From: a bacterium
GTDB taxonomy: Bacteria; Atribacterota; Phoenicimicrobiia; Phoenicimicrobiales; Phoenicimicrobiaceae
Assembly: GCA_018819665.1 (NCBI GenBank)
Contig: JAHJOY010000186.1
Coordinates: 1-27,923, forward strand
Direction of reading: 5' to 3'
DNA: 27,923 bases
Made by a program: the position numbers and the translations under genes. Shown in pieces: positions 3,356-13,638 of the stretch; within the stretch, counting starts at the first letter, position 1, and each line of letters opens with the position of its first letter. A model generated the notes under the pieces. That model was given only the letters and a program-made list of their open reading frames with translations. It had not been told where the DNA came from and did no database searches.

Positions 3356-4062
3356 ATATTACCATAAAACAAATGATTGAGACCTCTCTGATTGATTGGG
3401 AGGGGAAAATTGTTTCTACTTTGTATCTCCCTTTATGTAATTTTAGATGTCCCTTCTGCTATAATTGTGATTTAATATTACATCCGGATAATTTTAAAAA
3501 TATTCCTCAAAAAGAAATAGACAGTTATCTTTTAGAGAGAAAAGATTTTATCGATGGCATATGTATGAGTGGAGGAGAGCCCACCCTATACCCCGATTTA
3601 CCTGTATATTTTAAAGGAATAAAGGATAAAGGTTTTTTAATAAAGCTGGATACTAATGGTACTAATCCGAAATTATTAGAAAATCTCATAGATTTTGGTT
3701 TGGTGGATTATATTGCCCTGGATATTAAGTCATCATTAGATTTTGGTAATTATTCTAAAGCCGCGGGTATTATAGATAAGATGATGATGGAGAAGGTAAA
3801 AAATAGTATTGAATTAATAATGAACTCAAAAATTGATTATGAATTTCGTACTACTGTCGTGCCTTTATTGCACTCCGATGAGACTATTATGGAAATTGCT
3901 AGGTATATTGCTGGGGCAAAAAAATATGTCTTACAAAATTTCTCTCCTTTAGAGAAGACCCTCGATCCTTCTTTTCAAAAAATAAAACCCTATTCTGATG
4001 AAAAGATTCAGGAATTATCGGAAAAAGCCAAAAAATATGTTCCCAATTGTTGTTGGAGATGA
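3352..4062 (+). CDS. nrdG: Anaerobic RNR activating radical-SAM protein
   Basis: CNFRCPFC radical SAM motif, SGGEPT, KLDTNG, YEFRTT; TTG start overlaps upstream TGA. Confidence 0.93.
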   Translation: MNITIKQMIETSLIDWEGKIVSTLYLPLCNFRCPFCYNCDLILHPDNFKNIPQKEIDSYLLERKDFIDGICMSGGEPTLYPDLPVYFKGIKDKGFLIKLDTNGTNPKLLENLIDFGLVDYIALDIKSSLDFGNYSKAAGIIDKMMMEKVKNSIELIMNSKIDYEFRTTVVPLLHSDETIMEIARYIAGAKKYVLQNFSPLEKTLDPSFQKIKPYSDEKIQELSEKAKKYVPNCCWR

Positions 4063-4109
4063 AAATTAGTCTTTAGTGAAAAGAATAGCGTTTTATTTTT
4101 ACCTAAATA

Positions 4110-4118
4110 TGTTATACT
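4110..4118 (+). promoter_or_regulatory. Extended -10 promoter upstream of glycine riboswitch
   Basis: TG-T-TATACT at 4110-4118; no clear -35. Confidence 0.5.
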
Positions 4119-4167
4119 ATATAAAACTATTTTGAATCGAGATTAGTACAATTAAATAAATTTTTAT

Positions 4168-4356
4168 TCTGGATGAAAGTAATGGGAGAGGTCTTTTCTG
4201 TTACGGAGAAGAAGCCGAAGGGGCAAGATGTATGATACATTTAAACTCTCAGGCAAAAGGACCATTGCCGGACAGAACTCTGGAAGGTTTTTTAATAAAC
4301 ACCGAAGGGGTAATTTCCAATATTCTGGAAAAATCTCTCAGGTAAAAAGACAGGGT
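4168..4356 (+). ncRNA. Tandem glycine riboswitch (two aptamers plus leader)
   Basis: Aptamer 1: GGAGAG...GCCGAAGGGGCAA...AAACTCTCAGGCAAAAGGAC with P1 gtaatgg/ccattgc. Aptamer 2: CTCTGGAAGG...CACCGAAGGGGTAA...AATCTCTCAGGTAAAAAGACAGGG. GGATGAA leader at 4171. Confidence 0.93.
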
Positions 4357-4389
4357 AAGAAATTCCGTTGGAGTATCTTACCCTTTTTT
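4352..4389 (+). terminator. Intrinsic terminator, riboswitch expression platform
   Basis: agggtaaga (4352-4360) / tcttaccct (4376-4384) 9-bp stem followed by T-tract; 5' arm overlaps the 3' P1 strand of aptamer 2. Confidence 0.85.
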
Positions 4390-4440
4390 ATTTTGATACA
4401 GTATAAGTAGTAAAAAATATTTGCAAAAAGTAGAGATAAT

Positions 4441-5268
4441 TTGAACCAGGATTTTGAATTAAAAGAACTTGGACAAATAAAATATTTCAACTGTAGAGAA
4501 TTGGACAACACCAACTTAGTAGTAAATGCTTTTACTACTCGAACAGGTGGGGTAAGCAGAACCCCCTTTGATAACCTTAATTTATCCTATAATGTAGGTG
4601 ATGAAGAAAGCCGCGTAGCAGAAAACAGAAAAATAATTTTAGATTCTTTAAACATTGATTATCGAACCACGATAACTGCCCAGCAAGTCCATAAAGATAA
4701 AATAAGCTTAGTAAGAAAAGAAGATAAAGGTAAGGGAGCCTTTAAATATTCTAAGGGAATCGCACAAACCGATGCCTTAATTACAGATATCCCCGGTATA
4801 CCGCTTCTAATGTGTTATGCTGATTGTGTACCTATTTTTATTTTAGACCCTGTCAAAAAAGCTATTGCCCTAATTCATAGTGGAAGAAAGGGAACAGAAT
4901 TGGAATTAACCTTAAAAACTTTGTTCAAGATGAAAAAAATCTTTGAGAGCCATCCCCGCTCCTGCTTAGCTGCCATTTTTCCCTCCATTGGTCCCTGCTG
5001 TTATTGCATTAAAGAGGAAAATAAAATTGATGATTATTGGTTAAATGAAATTAAATATAATGGTGAACCAATTTCCCTGCAAAACAAGAGCGGGAGGAGC
5101 CTTGATTTAAGAAAAGCAAACTATGGGCAATTAATTAAAGGAGGAGTGGAGGAAAAGAATATTTTTGTTAATGAGATTTGTACGGCAGATTACCCTGAAC
5201 TTTTCTTTTCCTACCGAAGGGATAAGGGAAATACCGGCCGTATGGCCGCTATCTTTATGTTAAAGTAA
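4441..5268 (+). CDS. pgeF: Peptidoglycan editing factor / purine nucleoside phosphorylase (YfiH/YlmD family)
   Basis: FTTRTGGVS, NLNLS, QQVH, DALIT, ADC, HSG, FFSYRR, GRM; His-Cys-His triad present; TTG start. Confidence 0.93.
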   Translation: MNQDFELKELGQIKYFNCRELDNTNLVVNAFTTRTGGVSRTPFDNLNLSYNVGDEESRVAENRKIILDSLNIDYRTTITAQQVHKDKISLVRKEDKGKGAFKYSKGIAQTDALITDIPGIPLLMCYADCVPIFILDPVKKAIALIHSGRKGTELELTLKTLFKMKKIFESHPRSCLAAIFPSIGPCCYCIKEENKIDDYWLNEIKYNGEPISLQNKSGRSLDLRKANYGQLIKGGVEEKNIFVNEICTADYPELFFSYRRDKGNTGRMAAIFMLK

Positions 5269-5340
5269 TAATAAAATGATTGCAATCCAAAAAGTAAACA
5301 AAATAGTAATGTAATCATATTAAAATATAGGGAGGAAGGT

Positions 5341-5646
5341 ATGCGGATAAAAGAGCATCCCATTTTGGAATTTAATCAGAAAGAAAAGATAAAATTCACC
5401 TTAGATGGGGAAGAATTAGAGGGCTATAAGGGTGAACCCATTGCTTCTGCCCTGGTGGCTGCCGGAGTAAAGGTGTTAAGCAGAAGCATTAAATATCACC
5501 GCCCCAGAGGATTTTTTTGTGCCATAGGAAAATGTTCAGCTTGTCAAATGAAAGTAAACGGTATTCCCAACATCAGAACCTGTGTAACTAAATTAGAAGA
5601 AGGGATGAAAGTAGAAACTCAAAAAGGGAAAGGTGATTTTAAGTGA
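5341..5646 (+). CDS. 2Fe-2S protein (HcnA-like / N-terminal domain of sarcosine oxidase or proline dehydrogenase alpha)
   Basis: GEPIASAL, HRPRGFFCAIGKCSAC...NIRTC; strong RBS ggaggaagg. Confidence 0.88.
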   Translation: MRIKEHPILEFNQKEKIKFTLDGEELEGYKGEPIASALVAAGVKVLSRSIKYHRPRGFFCAIGKCSACQMKVNGIPNIRTCVTKLEEGMKVETQKGKGDFK

Positions 5647-6743
5647 AAATGACCGATATAGCAATTATTGGAGGAGGTCCCGCAGGATTATCAGCAGCAA
5701 TTTATGCTGCTTCCTTAGGGGCAAAAGTAATTCTTATTGACGACGGTTTAGAACTCGGTGGACAGTTAATTAAACAGACCCATAAATTTTTTGGTTCCGA
5801 AAAACAGTTTGCCGGGATCAGAGGCATAGAGATTGCCAAAAAGATGATCCAGGATATCAAGGAATATGACAATATTGAAGTCATCGCCAATGCTACAGTC
5901 ACCGGCCATTATGAAGATGAGGTCATTACCATTGTCCAGGGAGTTAATGGTGATATATTAAAAAAAATAAAGGCCAACAGAATTATTGTAGCTACCGGTG
6001 CATCAGAGAATATGCTGCCTTTTGTAAATAACGACTTGCCTGGAGTCTATGGTGCCGGGGCGGTGCAGACCTTAATGAATCTTTACGGCGTAGTCCCGGG
6101 TAATAATATTTTAATGGTCGGGGCAGGCAATATCGGTCTGATTGTAAGCTACCAGCTCCTGCAAGCCGGGATTAAGGTAGAGGCAATAGTGGAAGCCCTT
6201 CCCAAGATAGGCGGATATCTGGTGCATGCCTCTAAGATTAGACGTTTGGGAGTACCTATCTATACTTCTCATTCTCTTAAAGAAGTTTATGGTACAGACT
6301 GTGTAGAAAAAGCCGTAATTTCTAAAATTAATAAAAATTTTGAATTTATTCCGGGGACAGAAAAAGAACTTCAAGTTGACACTATCTGCTTAGCTATAGG
6401 CTTATCTCCACTTTCTGATCTGCTCTGGCAGGCCGGTTGTCAGATGAAGTATATTTCTGAACTTGGAGGCTATGTTGCTTTAAGAGATGATAATATGAAA
6501 TCAAGTTTAAAAAATATTTATATTGCTGGAGATGTAGCCGGCATCGAAGAAGCCAGTAGTGCGATGTTAGAAGGACAAATTGCTGGTTTAAATGCTGCCA
6601 CGAGCTTAGGATATAAATGTGATAATTTTACAAAGTTAAATAAAAGCTTAAAAGCAGAATTAAAAGAATTGCGAGCTAACCCTTTAAGTGAAGAGATAAA
6701 GATAGGTATGGAAAAAGCCCTGATAAAGGAGGGGAAGGATTAA
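5643..6743 (+). CDS. NAD(P)/FAD-dependent oxidoreductase (proline dehydrogenase alpha / HcnB-like)
   Basis: GGGPAGLSAA, LGGQL, ATGA, NDLPGV, GAGNIG, IYIAGD. Confidence 0.9.
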   Translation: MKMTDIAIIGGGPAGLSAAIYAASLGAKVILIDDGLELGGQLIKQTHKFFGSEKQFAGIRGIEIAKKMIQDIKEYDNIEVIANATVTGHYEDEVITIVQGVNGDILKKIKANRIIVATGASENMLPFVNNDLPGVYGAGAVQTLMNLYGVVPGNNILMVGAGNIGLIVSYQLLQAGIKVEAIVEALPKIGGYLVHASKIRRLGVPIYTSHSLKEVYGTDCVEKAVISKINKNFEFIPGTEKELQVDTICLAIGLSPLSDLLWQAGCQMKYISELGGYVALRDDNMKSSLKNIYIAGDVAGIEEASSAMLEGQIAGLNAATSLGYKCDNFTKLNKSLKAELKELRANPLSEEIKIGMEKALIKEGKD

Positions 6744-6745
6744 CC

Positions 6746-7240
6746 ATGTTAGAAAGAACTGGCATACCAACCGATGATGATTTAGAAAAAGTAATTCCGA
6801 ATAAAGAAAGATTAGCAAAAGGACCAGTAGTCATAATAGAATGCTTTCAGAAGATACCCTGTGACCCTTGTGCCATATCCTGTAAACTTGGGGCAATAAA
6901 ACCCTTTAAAGATATAAACGATTTACCTCAGGTCGATTTTGATAAGTGTACCGGATGCGGGATTTGTATCAGTTCCTGCCCCGGTCTGGCCATATTCGTA
7001 ATAGACGAGAATTATTCAGATGAAAAATCTTTAATCAAACTACCTCATGAAATGTTACCTCTACCCCAGAAAGGAGAAGAGATTTATGCCTTAGATAGGG
7101 CAGGAGAAACAGTTGGTAAAGCAAAAGTAGTAAAAGTCCTAAAGATTAAAAGTAAGACCAATATAATTTCCATATCAGTTCCAAAAAATATGGCCATGAA
7201 GATTAGAAGTATAAGAGCGGAGGATAAACGCAATGGATGA
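6746..7240 (+). CDS. 2x[4Fe-4S] ferredoxin-type subunit (proline dehydrogenase gamma-like)
   Basis: CFQKIPCDPCAISC and CTGCGICISSCP. Confidence 0.88.
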   Translation: MLERTGIPTDDDLEKVIPNKERLAKGPVVIIECFQKIPCDPCAISCKLGAIKPFKDINDLPQVDFDKCTGCGICISSCPGLAIFVIDENYSDEKSLIKLPHEMLPLPQKGEEIYALDRAGETVGKAKVVKVLKIKSKTNIISISVPKNMAMKIRSIRAEDKRNG

Positions 7241-7505
7241 CAATGTAATAATTTGTCAGTGTGAAGATGTAACCTGGGGAGAAATTAGACAGGCCTTAGA
7301 AAAAGGTTATACTACCCTTGATGAAATTAAAAGGGTTACCCGAGCGGGAATGGGAAGATGTCAGGGCACGACTTGCCGTAGGATTATCTTAAGGGAAATC
7401 GCTAAGTTTTGCCATAAGAGCATAGAAGAGGTAGCTATACCTACCTTTAGGCCCCCCACCAAGCCGGTAAAATTAGGGACTCTGGCAGGTGATGACGATG
7501 ATTAA
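7233..7505 (+). CDS. BFD-like [2Fe-2S] subunit (proline dehydrogenase delta-like)
   Basis: ICQCEDVT...TRAGMGRCQGTTC...RPP. Confidence 0.88.
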   Translation: MDDNVIICQCEDVTWGEIRQALEKGYTTLDEIKRVTRAGMGRCQGTTCRRIILREIAKFCHKSIEEVAIPTFRPPTKPVKLGTLAGDDDD

Positions 7506-8640
7506 AAGAGCAAGTGTGGTAATAATTGGTGGAGGAGTTATCGGTTGCAGCATTGCTTATAATTTGGCTAAATTGGGATGTAAAGATGTAGTGTTGTTCG
7601 AGAAAAATAGTCTATCCAGCGGAGCTACCGGAAGATGTGGAGCAGGGATCAGACAACAATTTGGTACCAAGATGAACTGTATCCTTGCTCGAGAAAGTAT
7701 TAAAATATTTGAAAATCTAAGTCAGGAGCTGGACTATGATATTGAGCTCAACCAAGGTGGTTATCTTATACTGGCTTACACCGAAAAAGAAGTAAATCAG
7801 TTTAAAAAGAATGTTGCCTTAGAGCGATCTTTAGATATTGATGCCCGATTTATCTCAGTTGATGAAGCAAAAGAAATTGTCCCTCCTCTAAATGCCGAAG
7901 GAATATTAGCTGCCACTTTTTGTCCCACCGATGGACATGCCAATCCCTTTAAAACCAATTTTGCTTATGCGGAAGCTGCCCAAAGATTAGGTGTAAAGAT
8001 ATACACCTTTACTGAAGTAAAAGAGATTGGAACAGAAAACAATAAGATAGTGGCAGTTAAAACAGATAAAGAAAAGATATTAACTCCTATTGTAGTAAAT
8101 GCTGCCGGAGGATACTCAGGAACAATTGGAAAGATGGCTGGAGTAGATTTGCCAGTATATTCTCAAAGACACCAGATATTAGTTACTGAGCCTTTGGACC
8201 CTTTATTCAGACCGATGTTGATGTCTTTTTCCAGAAATTTCTATTGTCAACAGACTCCCCACGGTAGTATATTAATGGGCTGTGGAGATCCCAATGAGCC
8301 GAAAGGTTACGATATTGGCACAAGTTGGCAATTTGCTCGAGAAATTGCTCAAAAAATGACTACTATTGTGCCTCTATTAAAAGAGGTAAGTATGATTAGA
8401 CAATGGGCAGGATTGTATAATATGAGCCCAGATGCTCAACCAATCTTGGGTGAACACCCTCAAGTTGAAGGTTTTTACATGGCGATAGGATTTAGCGGAC
8501 ACGGATTTATGTTAGCTCCTGTAACCAGTAAACTTATTGCGGAGTTGATATTAGAAGGAAAGACTTCTCTTCCTATAGATAAATTAGATATAGGAAGATT
8601 CGAACGGGGTGAACTGATTATCGAACCCTCAGTAGTATAA
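7498..8640 (+). CDS. FAD-dependent amine/amino-acid dehydrogenase (DAO family; sarcosine oxidase beta / proline dehydrogenase beta)
   Basis: GGGVIG, GATGRCGAGIRQQF, WAGLY, PDAQP, GFSGHGFMLAP; start moved from 7489 to ATG 7498 on SD aggtg. Confidence 0.9.
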   Translation: MIKRASVVIIGGGVIGCSIAYNLAKLGCKDVVLFEKNSLSSGATGRCGAGIRQQFGTKMNCILARESIKIFENLSQELDYDIELNQGGYLILAYTEKEVNQFKKNVALERSLDIDARFISVDEAKEIVPPLNAEGILAATFCPTDGHANPFKTNFAYAEAAQRLGVKIYTFTEVKEIGTENNKIVAVKTDKEKILTPIVVNAAGGYSGTIGKMAGVDLPVYSQRHQILVTEPLDPLFRPMLMSFSRNFYCQQTPHGSILMGCGDPNEPKGYDIGTSWQFAREIAQKMTTIVPLLKEVSMIRQWAGLYNMSPDAQPILGEHPQVEGFYMAIGFSGHGFMLAPVTSKLIAELILEGKTSLPIDKLDIGRFERGELIIEPSVV

Positions 8641-8940
8641 GAAATAAAATAATAAAACTTATTTCATTCAATAAAAGAAGGGTTTTTTAATTTTTTGTAG
8701 AATATATATATGATAAATAGGTTAGGCAAAAAATAATCTACAGATGGTTTTTCTCAAAATTTAAAAAAGGTACCTAGTAACTGTAATTTTGTGAGTGACT
8801 ATTCTTACAGAAAAAAAAGGAGGTGAAAGGATTTCTTAAATAACTATATAATAGAAGTTACCTCTAATGTTATGGCTAATTAATTTGCTAAAATGATCTG
8901 TTTTTTTATGTATTTTAAAATAATTAAAGGAGAATTAAAA

Positions 8941-10107
8941 ATGAAAAGAATAAAATTTTTGTTAGTTATTAGTATGTTAGTATTGGCTCTTGGCGTAGCT
9001 TCTTTGGGAGTGATGGCTGCTGATAAACCACCGGTAGTAATCGGTCTTCAAGCTCCAATTACTGGTGCAGCCGCAATTGAAGGTGAAATGGCTAAACAGT
9101 CTGTAGAAATTGCAGCTCAAATGATCAATGAAAAGGGTGGAATTTTGGGTGGCAGAATGATTGAAATTAGAGTAGTTGATGATGCTTGTGAACCCAAACA
9201 AAGTGCTTTAGCAGCAACGAAGTTAACATCTCAGAAAGATGTAGTTGCTGCTATTCAAACCTACGGCTCTTCTATTACCCAGCCTGCTTCTGATATATAT
9301 GAAAAATATAAAAAAGTAAATATTGCTTATGGTGCAACTGTTACCGGTCTTACCGAAAGAGGGTTAAAGTATTTCTTCCGTACTTGTGGAAGAACCGATA
9401 CTCAAGGTGCATTTTTTGCAGATGAAGTCGTTCCCCTCTTTAATGCTAAAAAAATAGCCATTATGCATGATAACCTAACCTTCTCTTTGGGGCTTGCTGA
9501 AGATACCAAAAAATCCTTACAACCTAAGATAGATGCTGGAGAGGTAGAATTAGTCTACTTTGATGCAATTACACCCGGAGAATCTGATTATACTGTTCCT
9601 CTGACTAAATTAAGAGAAACTAATCCGGATATATTCTATTTCACCGGTTATTTCCCGGAAGCAGGATTAATAATCAGACAAGCCCGCGATATCGGAATTA
9701 CGGCAGTATTTGTAGGCGGAGATGCAGCCATTAATGAAGATTTCATTAATATTGCCGGTTTAGAGTATGCTGCAGGTTGTTATCAAACCCAGGAAGCCTT
9801 AATCGAATATTTTACCAACCCTGAAGCAATGGAATTTAAAGAAGCCTATAAGGCGAAATATAATACTCTTCCATCCAGCCCCTGGTCAGTTTATGCTGCC
9901 GATGCTCTCTGCGTACTTGCAGAAGCTATTGACAAATCTGGTTCCACCGATTCAGATGTCATCGCTGATTATCTGAGAAATAAGATGGATAAATTCCCCA
10001 GTATTACCGGTCCAATAAGTTTTGATGAAATTGGTGACCGTGTAGGAACCGGAATTAATCTTTATGTAGTAAACGCAGATGGAAGTTTCGGAATTTACGG
10101 AAAATAA
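8941..10107 (+). CDS. livK: Branched-chain amino acid-type ABC transporter substrate-binding protein
   Basis: Signal peptide MKRIKFLL...GVMA-AD, APITG, DDACEP, FFRT, DYTVPL, YAADA; RBS aaggag favours 8941 over 8893; substrate unknown. Confidence 0.88.
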   Translation: MKRIKFLLVISMLVLALGVASLGVMAADKPPVVIGLQAPITGAAAIEGEMAKQSVEIAAQMINEKGGILGGRMIEIRVVDDACEPKQSALAATKLTSQKDVVAAIQTYGSSITQPASDIYEKYKKVNIAYGATVTGLTERGLKYFFRTCGRTDTQGAFFADEVVPLFNAKKIAIMHDNLTFSLGLAEDTKKSLQPKIDAGEVELVYFDAITPGESDYTVPLTKLRETNPDIFYFTGYFPEAGLIIRQARDIGITAVFVGGDAAINEDFINIAGLEYAAGCYQTQEALIEYFTNPEAMEFKEAYKAKYNTLPSSPWSVYAADALCVLAEAIDKSGSTDSDVIADYLRNKMDKFPSITGPISFDEIGDRVGTGINLYVVNADGSFGIYGK

Positions 10108-10132
10108 AATAAAAATGAGGTAAGATACGAAG

Positions 10133-11044
10133 ATGAAAATCATATTAGAGCAGTTACTTAACGGATTGACCATAGGTTCATTTTATGCTCTTATTGCTCT
10201 CGGGTATTCCATGGTATACGGGGTAATGAAGCTGATTAATTTTGCGCACGGAGACTTATTTGCCCTGGGTTCTTATCTTGGATATACCCTTCTCGTATTT
10301 GGCTCTACCTATGTTACCGTCACCTTTGGTATATGGGGCGGTATGATTGCGGCTATGTTAATAGCCGCAATCGGCATAGGAATTGCCGGTACTTTAATAG
10401 AGCGAATTGCCTATCGTCCAATATATTCAGTAGGCCGGCTTCCCGCAGTAGTGTCTGCATTAGGTGCTTCAATTGTTATACAAAATGGGATAATGGTTGC
10501 TTGGGGCCCGCGCCCGCAAGCTTATCCCTCACAGGTTGTTCCTTCGATTATGTTAAATATTGGAGAGTTTAAAATTACTTTATTACAAGTTATAATTTTA
10601 TTGATTTCTTTTATGCTTATGGGACTTTTATATTATATTGTTCAAAAAACTACCTTTGGCGCAGCTATCCGTGCTTGTGCTTTGGATAGAGATACTGCCG
10701 CCTTAATGGGGATAAACATTGAAACAATTATATTTTTTATTTTTGCTTTAGGCCCGGCTTTAGGCGGAATGTCAGGAGTAATGGTAGGTATGTACTATAG
10801 GAAGATTAGTTTTATAATGGGATGGAATTATGGATTAAAAGCCTTTACTGCTACTATCCTGGGAGGTATCGGTAATATCCCGGGTGCAATGCTGGGAGGA
10901 CTTCTCCTGGGAGTATTGGAAATGTTAGGATCTGCCTACATTTCTACCGCTTATAAGGATGTGTTTGTATTTTTAGTTTTAATATTAGTATTAATTTTTC
11001 GCCCCAGAGGTCTTTTGGGTGAAAAAGTTGCAGAAAAAGTGTAA
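10133..11044 (+). CDS. livH: ABC transporter permease LivH
   Basis: NGLTIGSFYALIALGYSMVYG, NFAHG, GAAIRA, LGGIGNIPGA, RPRGLLG. Confidence 0.93.
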   Translation: MKIILEQLLNGLTIGSFYALIALGYSMVYGVMKLINFAHGDLFALGSYLGYTLLVFGSTYVTVTFGIWGGMIAAMLIAAIGIGIAGTLIERIAYRPIYSVGRLPAVVSALGASIVIQNGIMVAWGPRPQAYPSQVVPSIMLNIGEFKITLLQVIILLISFMLMGLLYYIVQKTTFGAAIRACALDRDTAALMGINIETIIFFIFALGPALGGMSGVMVGMYYRKISFIMGWNYGLKAFTATILGGIGNIPGAMLGGLLLGVLEMLGSAYISTAYKDVFVFLVLILVLIFRPRGLLGEKVAEKV

Positions 11045-11056
11045 AGGGGCGAAAAT

Positions 11057-12055
11057 ATGAAATTAAACAAAAATATAACAGAAAAAAATAGTATATTTAA
11101 AAATTGGATGGTTATCTTAGCAGCGATTTTATTTATAATATTACCTTTTATAATAAATGCTTATTGGGTAGATGTTTTATTTTTCTTCGGCATCTATGCT
11201 CTTTTGGGACTTAGTTTAAATATTGTTTTAGGAGAAGTGGGGCTTTTTGATTTAGGACATATTGGATTTATGGCTATCGGTGCTTACACTACCGCAATAC
11301 TTAATGCCACCTTTGGAATTCCTATAATTATTTTACTGCCAGTAAGTGCAATTGCAGCAGGTGCTTTTGCCTGGTTAGTCTGTTCTCCAATCATCCATTT
11401 AAGAGGAGATTACCTGTGTATCGTAACTATCGGGATGGGTGAAATTGTCCGGCTTACTTTAAACAATAATCCATTTGGAATTACCGGTGGTCCAAATGGG
11501 GTTTTCGGAATTGATTTTCCTTCATTGGGGAGTATCTTTGTAGTCGATAATTCTACTAAATTTTATTATTTCATATGGTTAATAGTCGGCCTAACCATCA
11601 TCGGTTTGGTTAATTTGCAGCGTTCGCGAATAGGAAGAGCCTGGAACTGCATCCGAGAAGATGAAATTGCTGCAGAAGCTACCGGGATTGATGTTAGGTA
11701 TTATAAGTTATTGGCTTTTGTTTTAGGAGCAGGTTTAGCCGGGGTTGCCGGTAATGTTTACGCTACTAAATTAATGATGGTTTCTCCGGAGAGTTTTAAC
11801 TTTATGGAATCCTGCATGCTCTTCTGTATTGTATTAATCGGAGGAATGGGTTCTATACCCGGAGTGTTAATCGGGGCTGCTGCCATCAGCCTTTTCCCGG
11901 AATTTTTCCGAACTTTCGCCCAATACCGAATGCTAATTTTTGGAGCAGCCATGGTGGCTATGATGGTCTTTAAACCCGGTGGTATTTGGCCCAGGAAAAG
12001 AGGAGCCGTTAAATTCAAATCACTTTTAATGAAAGCAGGAGATGAAAATGGCTAA
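11057..12055 (+). CDS. livM: ABC transporter permease LivM
   Basis: LRGDYLCIVTIGMGEI, TGGPNG, GRAW, REDEIAAEATG, GGMGSIPG. Confidence 0.93.
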   Translation: MKLNKNITEKNSIFKNWMVILAAILFIILPFIINAYWVDVLFFFGIYALLGLSLNIVLGEVGLFDLGHIGFMAIGAYTTAILNATFGIPIIILLPVSAIAAGAFAWLVCSPIIHLRGDYLCIVTIGMGEIVRLTLNNNPFGITGGPNGVFGIDFPSLGSIFVVDNSTKFYYFIWLIVGLTIIGLVNLQRSRIGRAWNCIREDEIAAEATGIDVRYYKLLAFVLGAGLAGVAGNVYATKLMMVSPESFNFMESCMLFCIVLIGGMGSIPGVLIGAAAISLFPEFFRTFAQYRMLIFGAAMVAMMVFKPGGIWPRKRGAVKFKSLLMKAGDENG

Positions 12056-12896
12056 AGACAATAATAGTATGGAAACAATGATAAGAACCAAACAAGCAAA
12101 TGAAGAAATAAATAAAATTAATAAAGTTGTTTTGCAAACCGATAAACTTACTAAAAAATTCGGCGGTTTAACTGCAGTAAACAATTTTGACCTTAAAGTG
12201 AGTCAAGGGCAAATAAGCAGCCTGATAGGCCCTAACGGAGCAGGAAAAACTACTGTTTTTAATGTAGTTACCGGCATATATAAAGCTGATGGTGGAAAAG
12301 TTGTCTTTAAGGGAGAAGACCTTGTCGGTAAAAAACCTCATCAGATTATAAAAAAGGGAATTGCGCGGACTTTTCAAAATATTCGACTTTTTTCCAATAT
12401 GACCTGTCTGGAGAATGTTATGGCAGGGCAGCACTGCCGTAGTAATGAGGGAACCTGGACTTCTATTTTACAAACTCCCGGACAAAAAAAAGAAGAATTG
12501 GAAATTAAGAAAAATGCTGAAGACCGCCTTAAACAGGTCGGATTATGGAAATATCGAGATGAATTAGCAAAAAACATTGCCTATGGTAATCAGAGAATGT
12601 TAGAAATAGGCCGAGCTTTAGCCTCTAATCCTGATTTATTAATTTTAGACGAACCAAGCAGCGGCCTAAATGATAAAGAATCTGAAGACCTGATAATATT
12701 TTTAAAATTCTTATTAAAGGAAGATTTAACTATTTTACTTATCGAACACGATATGAATGTAGTAATGGGAATTTCTCATTGGGTTACAGTAATGGACGAA
12801 GGTAAAAAAATTGCTGAAGGTTTGCCCGAAGATGTATATAGTAATCCTCAAGTAATTGAAGCTTACTTAGGCAAAGACGAAGAGGAGGAGGAATAG
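12048..12896 (+). CDS. livG: ABC transporter ATP-binding protein LivG
   Basis: FGGLTAV, GPNGAGKTT, RTFQN, LDEP, LIEHDM, EAYLG; SD aggag fits ATG 12048. Confidence 0.93.
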   Translation: MAKDNNSMETMIRTKQANEEINKINKVVLQTDKLTKKFGGLTAVNNFDLKVSQGQISSLIGPNGAGKTTVFNVVTGIYKADGGKVVFKGEDLVGKKPHQIIKKGIARTFQNIRLFSNMTCLENVMAGQHCRSNEGTWTSILQTPGQKKEELEIKKNAEDRLKQVGLWKYRDELAKNIAYGNQRMLEIGRALASNPDLLILDEPSSGLNDKESEDLIIFLKFLLKEDLTILLIEHDMNVVMGISHWVTVMDEGKKIAEGLPEDVYSNPQVIEAYLGKDEEEEE

Positions 12897-12900
12897 TAAT

Positions 12901-13638
12901 ATGACTACATTGTTGAAAGTAGAAGATTTAAAAATATTTTATGGTTCTATCGAAGCTCTTAAAGGAATTTCACTTACAGTTGATGAGGGTGAAATAGTTA
13001 CCGTATTAGGGGCAAATGGGGCCGGGAAAAGCACTCTTTTAAGGGCTATCTCCGGGTTATTGCCCATCCGCAGCGGAAAGATTAAGTTAGGTGACCAAGA
13101 ACTTAACAATGTTAAGGCATTCAAAATAGTTATGGGGGGCATTTCGCACGTACCCGAGGGTCGAAAAGTATTTGCAACTCTTACAGTCGATGAAAATCTT
13201 AATTTGGGTGCATATACTCGAAGAAAAGACAAAAAGAATATTAAAGAATCTAAAGAAAGGGTTTATGATTTATTTCCTATTCTTAAAGCGCGACGTAATC
13301 AATTATCCGGAACATTATCAGGTGGTGAACAGCAGATGTTAGCAATGGGAAGAGGTTTAATGAGCACCCCCCGCATCTTACTTCTGGATGAACCTTCTCT
13401 GGGTTTGGCTCCCTTATTAGTAAAACAAATTATCCAAATTATCCGTGAAATTAATAATCAGGGTATATCAATATTATTAGTAGAACAAAATGCCCGTAAA
13501 GCATTAAGTATCGCTGATAGGGGATATGTGCTGGAAACCGGGAATATTACTATTAGTGGATTAGCTTCCGAATTAAAGAGTAATAAAAAAGTCCAGGAGG
13601 CCTACCTGGGAGGCGCTGCCCTTAAGAAGAGAAAATAA
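12901..13638 (+). CDS. livF: ABC transporter ATP-binding protein LivF
   Basis: GANGAGKS, VPEGR, LSGGEQQMLAMGR, LDEPSLGLAP, VEQN. Confidence 0.95.
   Translation: MTTLLKVEDLKIFYGSIEALKGISLTVDEGEIVTVLGANGAGKSTLLRAISGLLPIRSGKIKLGDQELNNVKAFKIVMGGISHVPEGRKVFATLTVDENLNLGAYTRRKDKKNIKESKERVYDLFPILKARRNQLSGTLSGGEQQMLAMGRGLMSTPRILLLDEPSLGLAPLLVKQIIQIIREINNQGISILLVEQNARKALSIADRGYVLETGNITISGLASELKSNKKVQEAYLGGAALKKRK

Follow-up and report, generated by a model that had tools for sequence, protein, structure and literature searches.

The window analysed here comprises positions 1–27,923 of contig JAHJOY010000186.1 (GenBank assembly GCA_018819665.1), part of an uncultured Atribacterota metagenome-assembled genome (MAG) of 1.73 Mb with a G+C content of 35% and a completeness of 91%; the related contigs all come from Atribacterota MAGs, and window DNA was detected in groundwater metagenomes. 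Its genes lie in the order nrdR-nrdD-nrdG, riboswitch, pgeF, five redox genes, livKHMGF, phoU, yggS, divIVA, yggU, ileS, lspA, lgt and rluD. We are concerned with the putative regulatory cassette between nrdG and pgeF, comprising a promoter-like site, a tandem glycine riboswitch and an intrinsic terminator, and with the six genes behind it (4441–8640), namely pgeF, for the peptidoglycan editing factor, and the genes of a five-subunit flavin/Fe–S dehydrogenase that resembles the archaeal L-proline dehydrogenases (PDHs). In what follows, f1 denotes the family of the window genome, and f2 a sister Atribacterota family.

The cassette between nrdG and pgeF

The features of the cassette, all on the forward strand, are as follows.

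4098–4125 (+): promoter-like elements; -35-like TTTACC at 4098–4103 and -10-like TATAAA at 4120–4125, with an alternative extended -10, TGTTATACT, at 4110–4118
4169–4274 (+): leader (5' strand of the P0 helix) and glycine aptamer 1; RF00504 match at 4173–4274, 63.1 bits, E 4e-11
4270–4363 (+): glycine aptamer 2; RF00504 52.7 bits (whole-genome search), R1 model 55.6 bits
4352–4394 (+): intrinsic terminator (expression platform); 9-bp outer stem of 4352–4360 with 4376–4384, enclosing an inner stem and followed by a T-run
4228–4410 (+): spurious 60-aa open reading frame (ORF) lying over the riboswitch

The original prediction, made from the letters of the window alone, had proposed a two-aptamer glycine riboswitch here and had named a search with RF00504 as its check: both aptamers exceed the gathering score of that model (32 bits), and the second is also found with R1, a covariance model built in this analysis. 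Over its full length, the tandem (4169–4357) can be aligned with the two-aptamer model RF03166; the alignment takes in the leader–linker P0 helix, in which 4169–4171 pair with the inter-aptamer linker; the consensus pairs between columns 3–7 and 109–113 are kept in 9–10 of 10 sequences. The GGAnGA variant that RF03166 represents was, however, rejected, as the full tandem scores 85.8 bits against a cut-off of 110; by these scores, therefore, the element is an ordinary tandem glycine riboswitch, for which RF00504 is the better description. The ORF over the riboswitch had been dismissed as spurious, and stop codons do indeed interrupt its reading frame in five of the ten relatives compared.

The expression platform immediately follows. 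The P1 helix of aptamer 2 pairs 4278–4282 with 4351–4355, and its 3' strand shares 4 nt (4352–4355) with the 5' arm of the terminator, behind which the T-run reads T6-A-T4 (4384–4394). Because a ligand-stabilized P1 and the terminator are mutually exclusive, the predicted layout is that of an ON switch. The overlap had been proposed with coordinates that proved exact; moreover, both the aptamers and the hairpin are conserved at ten related loci, the hairpin with a compensatory A-U to G-C change.

The promoter-like site was read by eye from the sequence; the consensus scan omitted it because its last -10 base is A. Two relatives with the riboswitch (L014 and L016) have kept the block, whereas G017 lacks both, and 4098–4125 is no more than a candidate for the promoter of the cassette.

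Genes downstream of the cassette

4441–5268 (+): pgeF (yfiH/ylmD), peptidoglycan editing factor; TIGR00726 163.8 bits against a cut-off of 141.15, Pfam Cu-oxidase_4 234 bits
5269–5340 (+): pgeF–fer2 spacer of 72 nt, with a strong Shine–Dalgarno sequence and no terminator (motif scan and folding)
5341–5646 (+): 2Fe–2S subunit (Fer2_4), counterpart of the SoxA N-terminus and HcnA-like; PF13510 111 bits, soxA model 13–100
5643–6743 (+): FAD/NAD(P)-binding subunit (Pyr_redox_2), corresponding to the middle of SoxA or to PDH alpha; Pfam match, soxA model 168–492
6746–7240 (+): 2x[4Fe–4S] ferredoxin-like subunit, gamma-like, lacking a counterpart in SoxABGD or HcnABC; Pfam Fer4 families, PDB matches to ferredoxin domains only
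7233–7505 (+): small BFD-like [2Fe–2S] or SO_alpha_A3 subunit; PF17806 61 bits, PF04324 49 bits, soxA model 522–599
7489–8640 (+): catalytic FAD subunit of the DAO family; PF01266 262 bits, 1Y56_B 316 bits over residues 6–376
8712–13638 (+): livKHMGF, Liv-type amino-acid ABC transporter (profile matches); a separate downstream unit, ahead of which the riboswitch operon probably ends

PgeF is the single match of its kind in this genome, and its catalytic His, Cys and His residues (within QVH, ADC and HSG motifs) align with those of the YfiH/YlmD structures 6DZD and 6T0Y. The enzyme removes Gly or Ser wrongly ligated to UDP-MurNAc precursors, as was recently demonstrated biochemically (PMC12280929), and the accepted explanation of glycine ON switches is the toxicity that glycine exerts through peptidoglycan (references in PMC6944388). 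No glycine aptamer was found near pgeF in 30 sampled Clostridia genomes or in eight f2 genomes, positive controls being recovered. Likewise, a literature search returned no paper connecting a glycine riboswitch with pgeF/yfiH/ylmD or with the five-gene cluster, and the gene-context tables that supplement the largest survey hold no entry for a glycine riboswitch with either, in agreement with the original prediction, which knew of no such regulon. The riboswitch class itself is textbook; what appears to be new is its link to a cargo of pgeF and a redox complex, a link that is restricted to a single family of an uncultured phylum and has frequently been lost there.

The five redox genes behind pgeF overlap or are 2 nt apart, as had been foreseen. 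The DAO subunit is ~47% identical, from end to end, to the beta subunit of the Pyrococcus horikoshii L-proline dehydrogenase (1Y56_B, PH1364), which is its best solved relative; other PDB scores are 150 bits for SoxB, 152 for dimethylglycine dehydrogenase and 108–136 for glycine oxidases, and the subunit falls under the NCBIfam cut-offs for SoxB (212 vs 529) and ThiO (TIGR02352; 158.7 vs 250.8). The Pyr_redox_2 protein matches 2GAG_A (SoxA alpha; 79 bits) and 1Y56_A (PH1363; 76 bits, over residues 3–161 only), whereas the gamma- and delta-like small subunits have domain-level matches only. Since the Fer2_4, Pyr_redox_2 and BFD/A3 proteins tile successive parts of the SoxA model, the alpha subunit appears to be split; the individual fragments score 62–173 bits against a SoxA cut-off of 1164, and the operon has no GCV_T domain. 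The only names found in the large protein database are 'FAD-dependent oxidoreductase' and the automatic label 'sarcosine oxidase subunit beta'. The archaeal dye-linked L-proline dehydrogenase family is itself related to HcnABC, D-hydroxyproline dehydrogenase and the opine dehydrogenases (PMC4575208; PMC8704557). From these relationships, we infer that the complex is the bacterial counterpart, with a split alpha subunit, of the archaeal alpha-beta-gamma-delta dye-linked L-proline dehydrogenase. Homology would favour a proline-type or N-substituted-glycine substrate, with glycine itself being possible.

The same five genes occur in the same order at 59 loci in Firmicutes and Thermotogae, at 55–63% identity (Alkaliphilus, Geosporobacter, Tissierella, Anaerosolibacter, Acidaminobacter and Thermotogaceae). 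At these loci (L053–L114), the cluster is usually preceded by a CBS-PAS sigma-54 activator and a Na+:neurotransmitter-family (SNF) symporter, and is usually followed by a 133-aa polyferredoxin and a 721-aa tungsten-type aldehyde:ferredoxin oxidoreductase (AOR). The window genome holds a 62%-identical ortholog of this AOR on another contig (C141; L155:338-2503), with two saccharopine dehydrogenase-family genes, a class-III aminotransferase and a PrpD-like gene as neighbours, a context that suggests amino-acid semialdehyde oxidation. A route from proline via P5C/glutamate semialdehyde to glutamate would fit both contexts. Two other partners for the complex were considered and set aside: the glycine-riboswitch-controlled AOR of a relative (G024) is not an ortholog of the cluster-linked enzyme and has no homolog in the window genome, and, for glycine reductase as a Stickland partner, GrdB was not found, in a search in which the control genomes gave no match either.

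The 72-nt gap between pgeF and fer2 had been described as free of any recognizable terminator: our scan of 5269–5340 found neither a terminator-like nor a promoter-like site, and the best fold is weak (-6.6 kcal/mol). A hairpin at the 3' end of pgeF (5235–5248), considered as an attenuator, was not counted as a terminator, as it lies within the coding sequence and has a poor T-run. The homologous spacers of many relatives are 10–43 nt long (25, 31, 31 and 43 nt among riboswitch-bearing genomes) and, therefore, have space for a ribosome-binding site alone; the longer ones of some relatives (95–295 nt) contain inserted palindromic repeats. A contig from a groundwater metatranscriptome library (X25) spans 5048–5406 with no mismatch and bridges the gap, and one from a soil metatranscriptome (X27), whose ~96% identity implies a related organism, runs from the end of nrdG through the riboswitch into pgeF (4006–4739); these are assembled contigs of patchy coverage, from RNA libraries that may contain DNA, and they are supportive only. 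High RNA depth at 4104–4304 (601, 262) was not used as evidence of a terminated leader, as loose ends at 4239/4243 show paralogous riboswitches of other loci or organisms piling up there. Taken together, it is likely that pgeF and the five redox genes are co-transcribed behind the riboswitch.

An RNA-library contig begins at 8712 with a sequencing adapter and GGG, at a depth ~3x that over the redox genes, which suggests that the livK unit has its own promoter near 8690–8705. No riboswitch was found in the 250-nt livK leader (8641–8892), which matches no Rfam family.

Distribution and origin of the switch

The gene order nrdDG-pgeF-fer2-pyrredox is always kept in f1, and the riboswitch stands ahead of pgeF in 10 of the 19 scorable genomes (G001, whose spacer is a run of N, was left unscored). 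Its carriers span at least two genera, and its presence or absence changes state at least five times on the flanking-protein tree. Where present, the whole element is 92–97% identical within the genus and both aptamer cores are intact; at the riboswitch-free f1 loci, a filter-free search gave a best score of 14.8 bits. Several of the absences are real deletions that differ in their end points: in G017, a clean ~330-bp indel has taken promoter, aptamers and terminator together; in G013, the 3' arm of the terminator and the T-run remain; and in G002, only the upstream part is left. The repeated clean losses within one genus amount to a small natural experiment, in which riboswitch control was gained by duplication and later shed.

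Two further f1 loci deserve mention in their own right. In G022 (L020/L043), aptamer 1 has decayed to 26.9 bits vs ~100, whereas both aptamer 2 and the terminator remain whole; the element is on its way to becoming a singlet that retains aptamer 2 in an ON context, opposing the trend reported for ON (gcv) contexts (PMC6944388). In G029 (L025), the 561-nt nrdG–pgeF spacer has no aptamer, and a hairpin with a T-run, similar to the terminator of the riboswitch, and a leader-like motif, GGATGAAA, lie just upstream of pgeF; they may represent what is left of the switch in the deepest f1 branch. Additionally, miniature palindromic repeats were seen in pgeF–fer2 spacers (L006:2057-2208, L019 and L013) and in nrdG–pgeF spacers (L008 and L019), either as a near-perfect inverted repeat of ~100 nt or as short GC-rich hairpins (GGGCACGATGCATCGTGCCC and GGGCAGACCTTGTGTCTGCCC). 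They look MITE- or REP-like, and may have been involved in the rearrangements that removed the riboswitch.

Outside f1 the arrangement differs. In f2, nrdG is followed by 520–1074 nt of non-coding DNA and then by fer2, with neither pgeF nor the riboswitch at the site; f2 pgeF is located elsewhere, likewise lacking a riboswitch, and the two occur together at this site in f1 only. The f2 leader upstream of fer2 has no sequence common to the three genomes compared and no Rfam match. No glycine aptamer was found at the redox cluster outside f1 by a regex scan of 80 loci, an Rfam search of eight loci or a search with R1 of 78 sources (~1.1 Mb).

A second tandem glycine riboswitch of the window genome (C36:5009-5209; L002) lies ahead of fhs, encoding formate-tetrahydrofolate ligase; in relatives, this unit is fhs-gcvH-gcvPA-gcvPB. 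The gcvT gene is located elsewhere (C314). The pgeF and fhs riboswitches are 85% identical over 204 nt, variable loops included, and, therefore, the former is probably a duplicate of the fhs/gcv element. Overall, we regard it as a probable regulatory overlay specific to this lineage, one that relatives have lost repeatedly.

The window genome has these two glycine riboswitches only, whereas same-genus relatives (L119–L128, L135, L142 and L144; e.g. G009, G014 and G015) have up to 20 RF00504 aptamer matches each, or ~10 tandem riboswitches, and an extended regulon that is missing from it. The additional elements often lie 200–350 nt upstream of atypical genes, namely those for large surface proteins with Ig, He_PIG, PKD, CARDB or PEGA domains, a DUF4412-ankyrin protein, a caspase-PEGA protein, a CsgG/LpoB-like lipoprotein, a patatin, a CMAS cyclopropane-fatty-acid synthase, a FocA-type formate transporter, and TRAP and sugar-type binding proteins. 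In one such locus, a c-di-GMP-I-GGC riboswitch (L128:3751-3848 on the reverse strand; RF03167, 61 bits against a cut-off of 59) is located between a tandem glycine riboswitch (3915–4150) and the gene for a 1108-aa He_PIG protein, a stack that would be a two-signal leader ahead of a giant surface protein. In another (G009), a group II intron domain (L126:1969-2138 on the reverse strand; RF02001, 128 bits) lies downstream of the glycine-riboswitch-led caspase-PEGA gene.

Proposed mechanism, alternatives and relation to known systems

Our preferred reading, to which we assign a probability of roughly 0.6, is that the cassette turns on a six-gene operon encoding PgeF and a PDH-like complex in response to glycine. 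At low glycine, the terminator would form and transcription would stop; on binding of glycine, the P1 helix of aptamer 2 would hold 4351–4355 and leave the base of the terminator unpaired, such that RNA polymerase would read through to give a single transcript covering 4441–8640. Glycine would be the inducer and PgeF the logical target: when glycine is high, MurC would load Gly rather than L-Ala as the first residue of the stem peptide, and PgeF would cleave Gly or Ser from UDP-MurNAc. The co-induced complex would oxidize an amino acid or a secondary amine, and the electrons would pass via its Fe–S clusters to NAD(P) or ferredoxin. Moreover, since no other terminator precedes it, the cassette would also terminate the nrdDG unit. 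If true, the placement of a glycine riboswitch directly ahead of pgeF would be the first natural regulatory tie of glycine sensing to cell-wall proofreading. The five-gene cluster, for its part, appears to encode a widespread, uncharacterized bacterial enzyme of anaerobic amino-acid fermenters that is related to the archaeal multi-subunit L-proline dehydrogenase; it is a candidate route for anaerobic amino-acid oxidation, linked to a Liv-type transporter in Atribacterota and to SNF, sigma-54 and AOR genes in Firmicutes.

A number of observations weigh against this reading. The core of aptamer 2 is slightly off consensus (GGAAGG; GGUAAAAAGAC), a deviation that the fhs riboswitch shares. Glycine control would seem dispensable for the operon, since 9 of the 19 f1 genomes lack the riboswitch despite having kept the genes and their order. 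Furthermore, were the complex a proline dehydrogenase, it is not evident what the cell would gain from glycine as its inducer. To these are added the limits of the RNA evidence given above, and the depth profile over pgeF, which is taken up below.

According to the original prediction, high glycine induces both PgeF and a glycine-oxidizing complex. The riboswitch, its ON layout and the likely shared transcript are upheld, and a link of glycine to PgeF is logical; the glycine-oxidizing complex finds no backing in homology, with 316 bits for 1Y56_B set against 136 for the best glycine oxidase and 150 for SoxB, and with both the ThiO and SoxB scores under their cut-offs. Glycine as the substrate of the complex is, thus, possible, yet not the best-supported reading. 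It is nonetheless the core of the strongest alternative, in which the complex itself is a dehydrogenase of glycine, yielding iminoacetate/glyoxylate and delivering the electrons to ferredoxin or NAD, and the operon is a dedicated two-pronged glycine detoxification system. The only sensor ahead of the operon is, after all, a glycine riboswitch; the other glycine riboswitch of the genome governs canonical glycine-catabolism and C1 genes, and one here would, therefore, usually mark glycine removal. HcnABC is a glycine-using member of the same enzyme family, which also includes the glycine user ThiO. Its set of Fer2_4, Pyr_redox_2+BFD and DAO domains is identical to that found here (PMC4575208). 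Other glycine sinks may also be useful, as no GrdB was found, in a search that had no working positive control. Set against this are the bit scores of the DAO subunit and the aptamer-free clusters of f2, Firmicutes and Thermotogae, although 4 of 5 checked cluster-bearing genomes outside Atribacterota own glycine riboswitches elsewhere. The company that the Firmicutes cluster keeps (SNF symporter, sigma-54 activator and tungsten-type AOR) also counts against it, and the context of the C141 AOR points to amino-acid semialdehydes, such as a proline oxidation product, rather than to glyoxylate. We consider this alternative to be rather unlikely.

A broader proposal, which we hold to be slightly less likely again, is that glycine is sensed as a threat to the cell envelope: the riboswitch–pgeF fusion would record the role of PgeF in editing out glycine during excess, and the complex would represent an anaerobic glycine dehydrogenase of a kind not known before, removing the same glycine with electrons to ferredoxin or NAD. 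The surface and envelope genes behind the extra glycine riboswitches of sister genomes fit this loosely.

Less probable still is that the riboswitch governs pgeF alone, the redox genes having an internal promoter, located within the 3' half of pgeF or behind it, and being adjacent through inherited gene order. In the ylm/divIVA region, as known from Bacillus subtilis, pgeF (ylmD) and yggS (ylmE) are normally direct neighbours, with ftsZ upstream of the pair and divIVA-ileS-lspA-rluD downstream. In the window, the position of pgeF also fits this old synteny, as judged from gene order: it occupies the ylmD place of the string yggS(ylmE)-divIVA-yggU-ileS-lspA-lgt-rluD, with the redox-liv-phoU block standing between pgeF and yggS. 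The redox cluster is located immediately behind ftsZ in one f2 genome, and f2 carries the cluster at this site lacking pgeF. Because the old synteny would also explain it, the adjacency of pgeF and the redox genes is, alone, weak evidence for a common function. The depth of X25, zero over 4506–4907 and 6–27 from 4908 onwards, would equally agree with transcription that starts inside pgeF, in its 3' half, and some relatives have the 95–295-nt spacers with palindromic repeats. Nevertheless, the metatranscriptome coverage is too sparse for start-site calling and no 5' end is reported near 5000; moreover, the 10–43-nt spacers of many relatives and the lack of a promoter-like match in 5269–5340 argue against this reading.

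Finally, that the cassette is mainly a conditional insulator ending the nrdR-nrdD-nrdG operon, or a decaying relic whose glycine response now has little adaptive weight, would agree with the lack of any other terminator between the end of nrdG (4062) and the riboswitch in the terminator scan, the X27 contig joining nrdG to pgeF, the nrdG–pgeF spacers of riboswitch-free relatives, which are as short as 49–76 nt, and the independent losses in G017, G013 and G002 and decay in G022, but we regard it as very improbable, as the identity within the genus, the intact aptamer cores and the covarying terminator argue for purifying selection, and the element is kept across at least two genera.

Returning to glycine induction of pgeF and a PDH-like complex as the preferred reading, the parts of the system can be set beside known ones. 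The closest in mechanism is the B. subtilis gcvT-gcvPA-gcvPB tandem glycine riboswitch (RF00504), likewise an ON switch acting via a terminator: both have two homologous aptamers, a P0 helix and a single platform in which the terminator competes with aptamer-2 P1, and both have a proposed response to excess glycine. They differ in cargo, which in the window is pgeF and a PDH-like complex rather than glycine cleavage genes or a transporter, and the element described here is patchy within one Atribacterota family and resembles a duplicate of the fhs-gcv riboswitch of its own lineage. With PgeF/YfiH/YlmD (PMC12280929; PMC8844914), the encoded protein shares a passing TIGR00726 score, the aligned His-Cys-His residues and a ylmD-like place relative to yggS, divIVA and ileS; what sets it apart is that its gene is the first behind a glycine sensor, in an operon with redox genes, and no riboswitch control of pgeF was found described.

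Among multi-subunit enzymes, SoxABGD resembles the complex in that three ORFs tile the SoxA model (13–600) and the DAO subunit is SoxB-like (212 bits), whereas the SoxA and SoxB cut-offs are not reached, there is neither a GCV_T folate domain nor SoxG or SoxD, and a ferredoxin subunit is additional. The HCN synthase of Pseudomonas (HcnABC; substrate glycine), compared by Pfam domains only, has the same domain set and order (2Fe–2S, Pyr_redox_2 with BFD, and DAO); in the window, however, the HcnB counterpart is split and a 2x[4Fe–4S] subunit is added, and HcnABC has an aerobic host, whereas the window lineage is anaerobic. The greatest likeness is to the archaeal dye-linked L-proline dehydrogenases, both the alpha-beta-gamma-delta enzyme of Thermococcus profundus and the alpha4beta4 enzyme of P. 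horikoshii (1Y56): the beta subunit matches with 316 bits and shares a GFSGHGFM motif, and there is an alpha-like FAD/NAD subunit. The small Fe–S subunits are roughly similar in size to the gamma and delta subunits, whose sizes Kawakami et al. are said to have given in 2004. Unlike its archaeal relatives, the complex described here has its alpha subunit divided into Fer2_4 and Pyr_redox_2 proteins, with a separate BFD/SO_alpha_A3 protein, and belongs to a bacterial, mesophilic host in which its genes neighbour a Liv-type ABC transporter or, in Firmicutes, an AOR and a sigma-54 activator.

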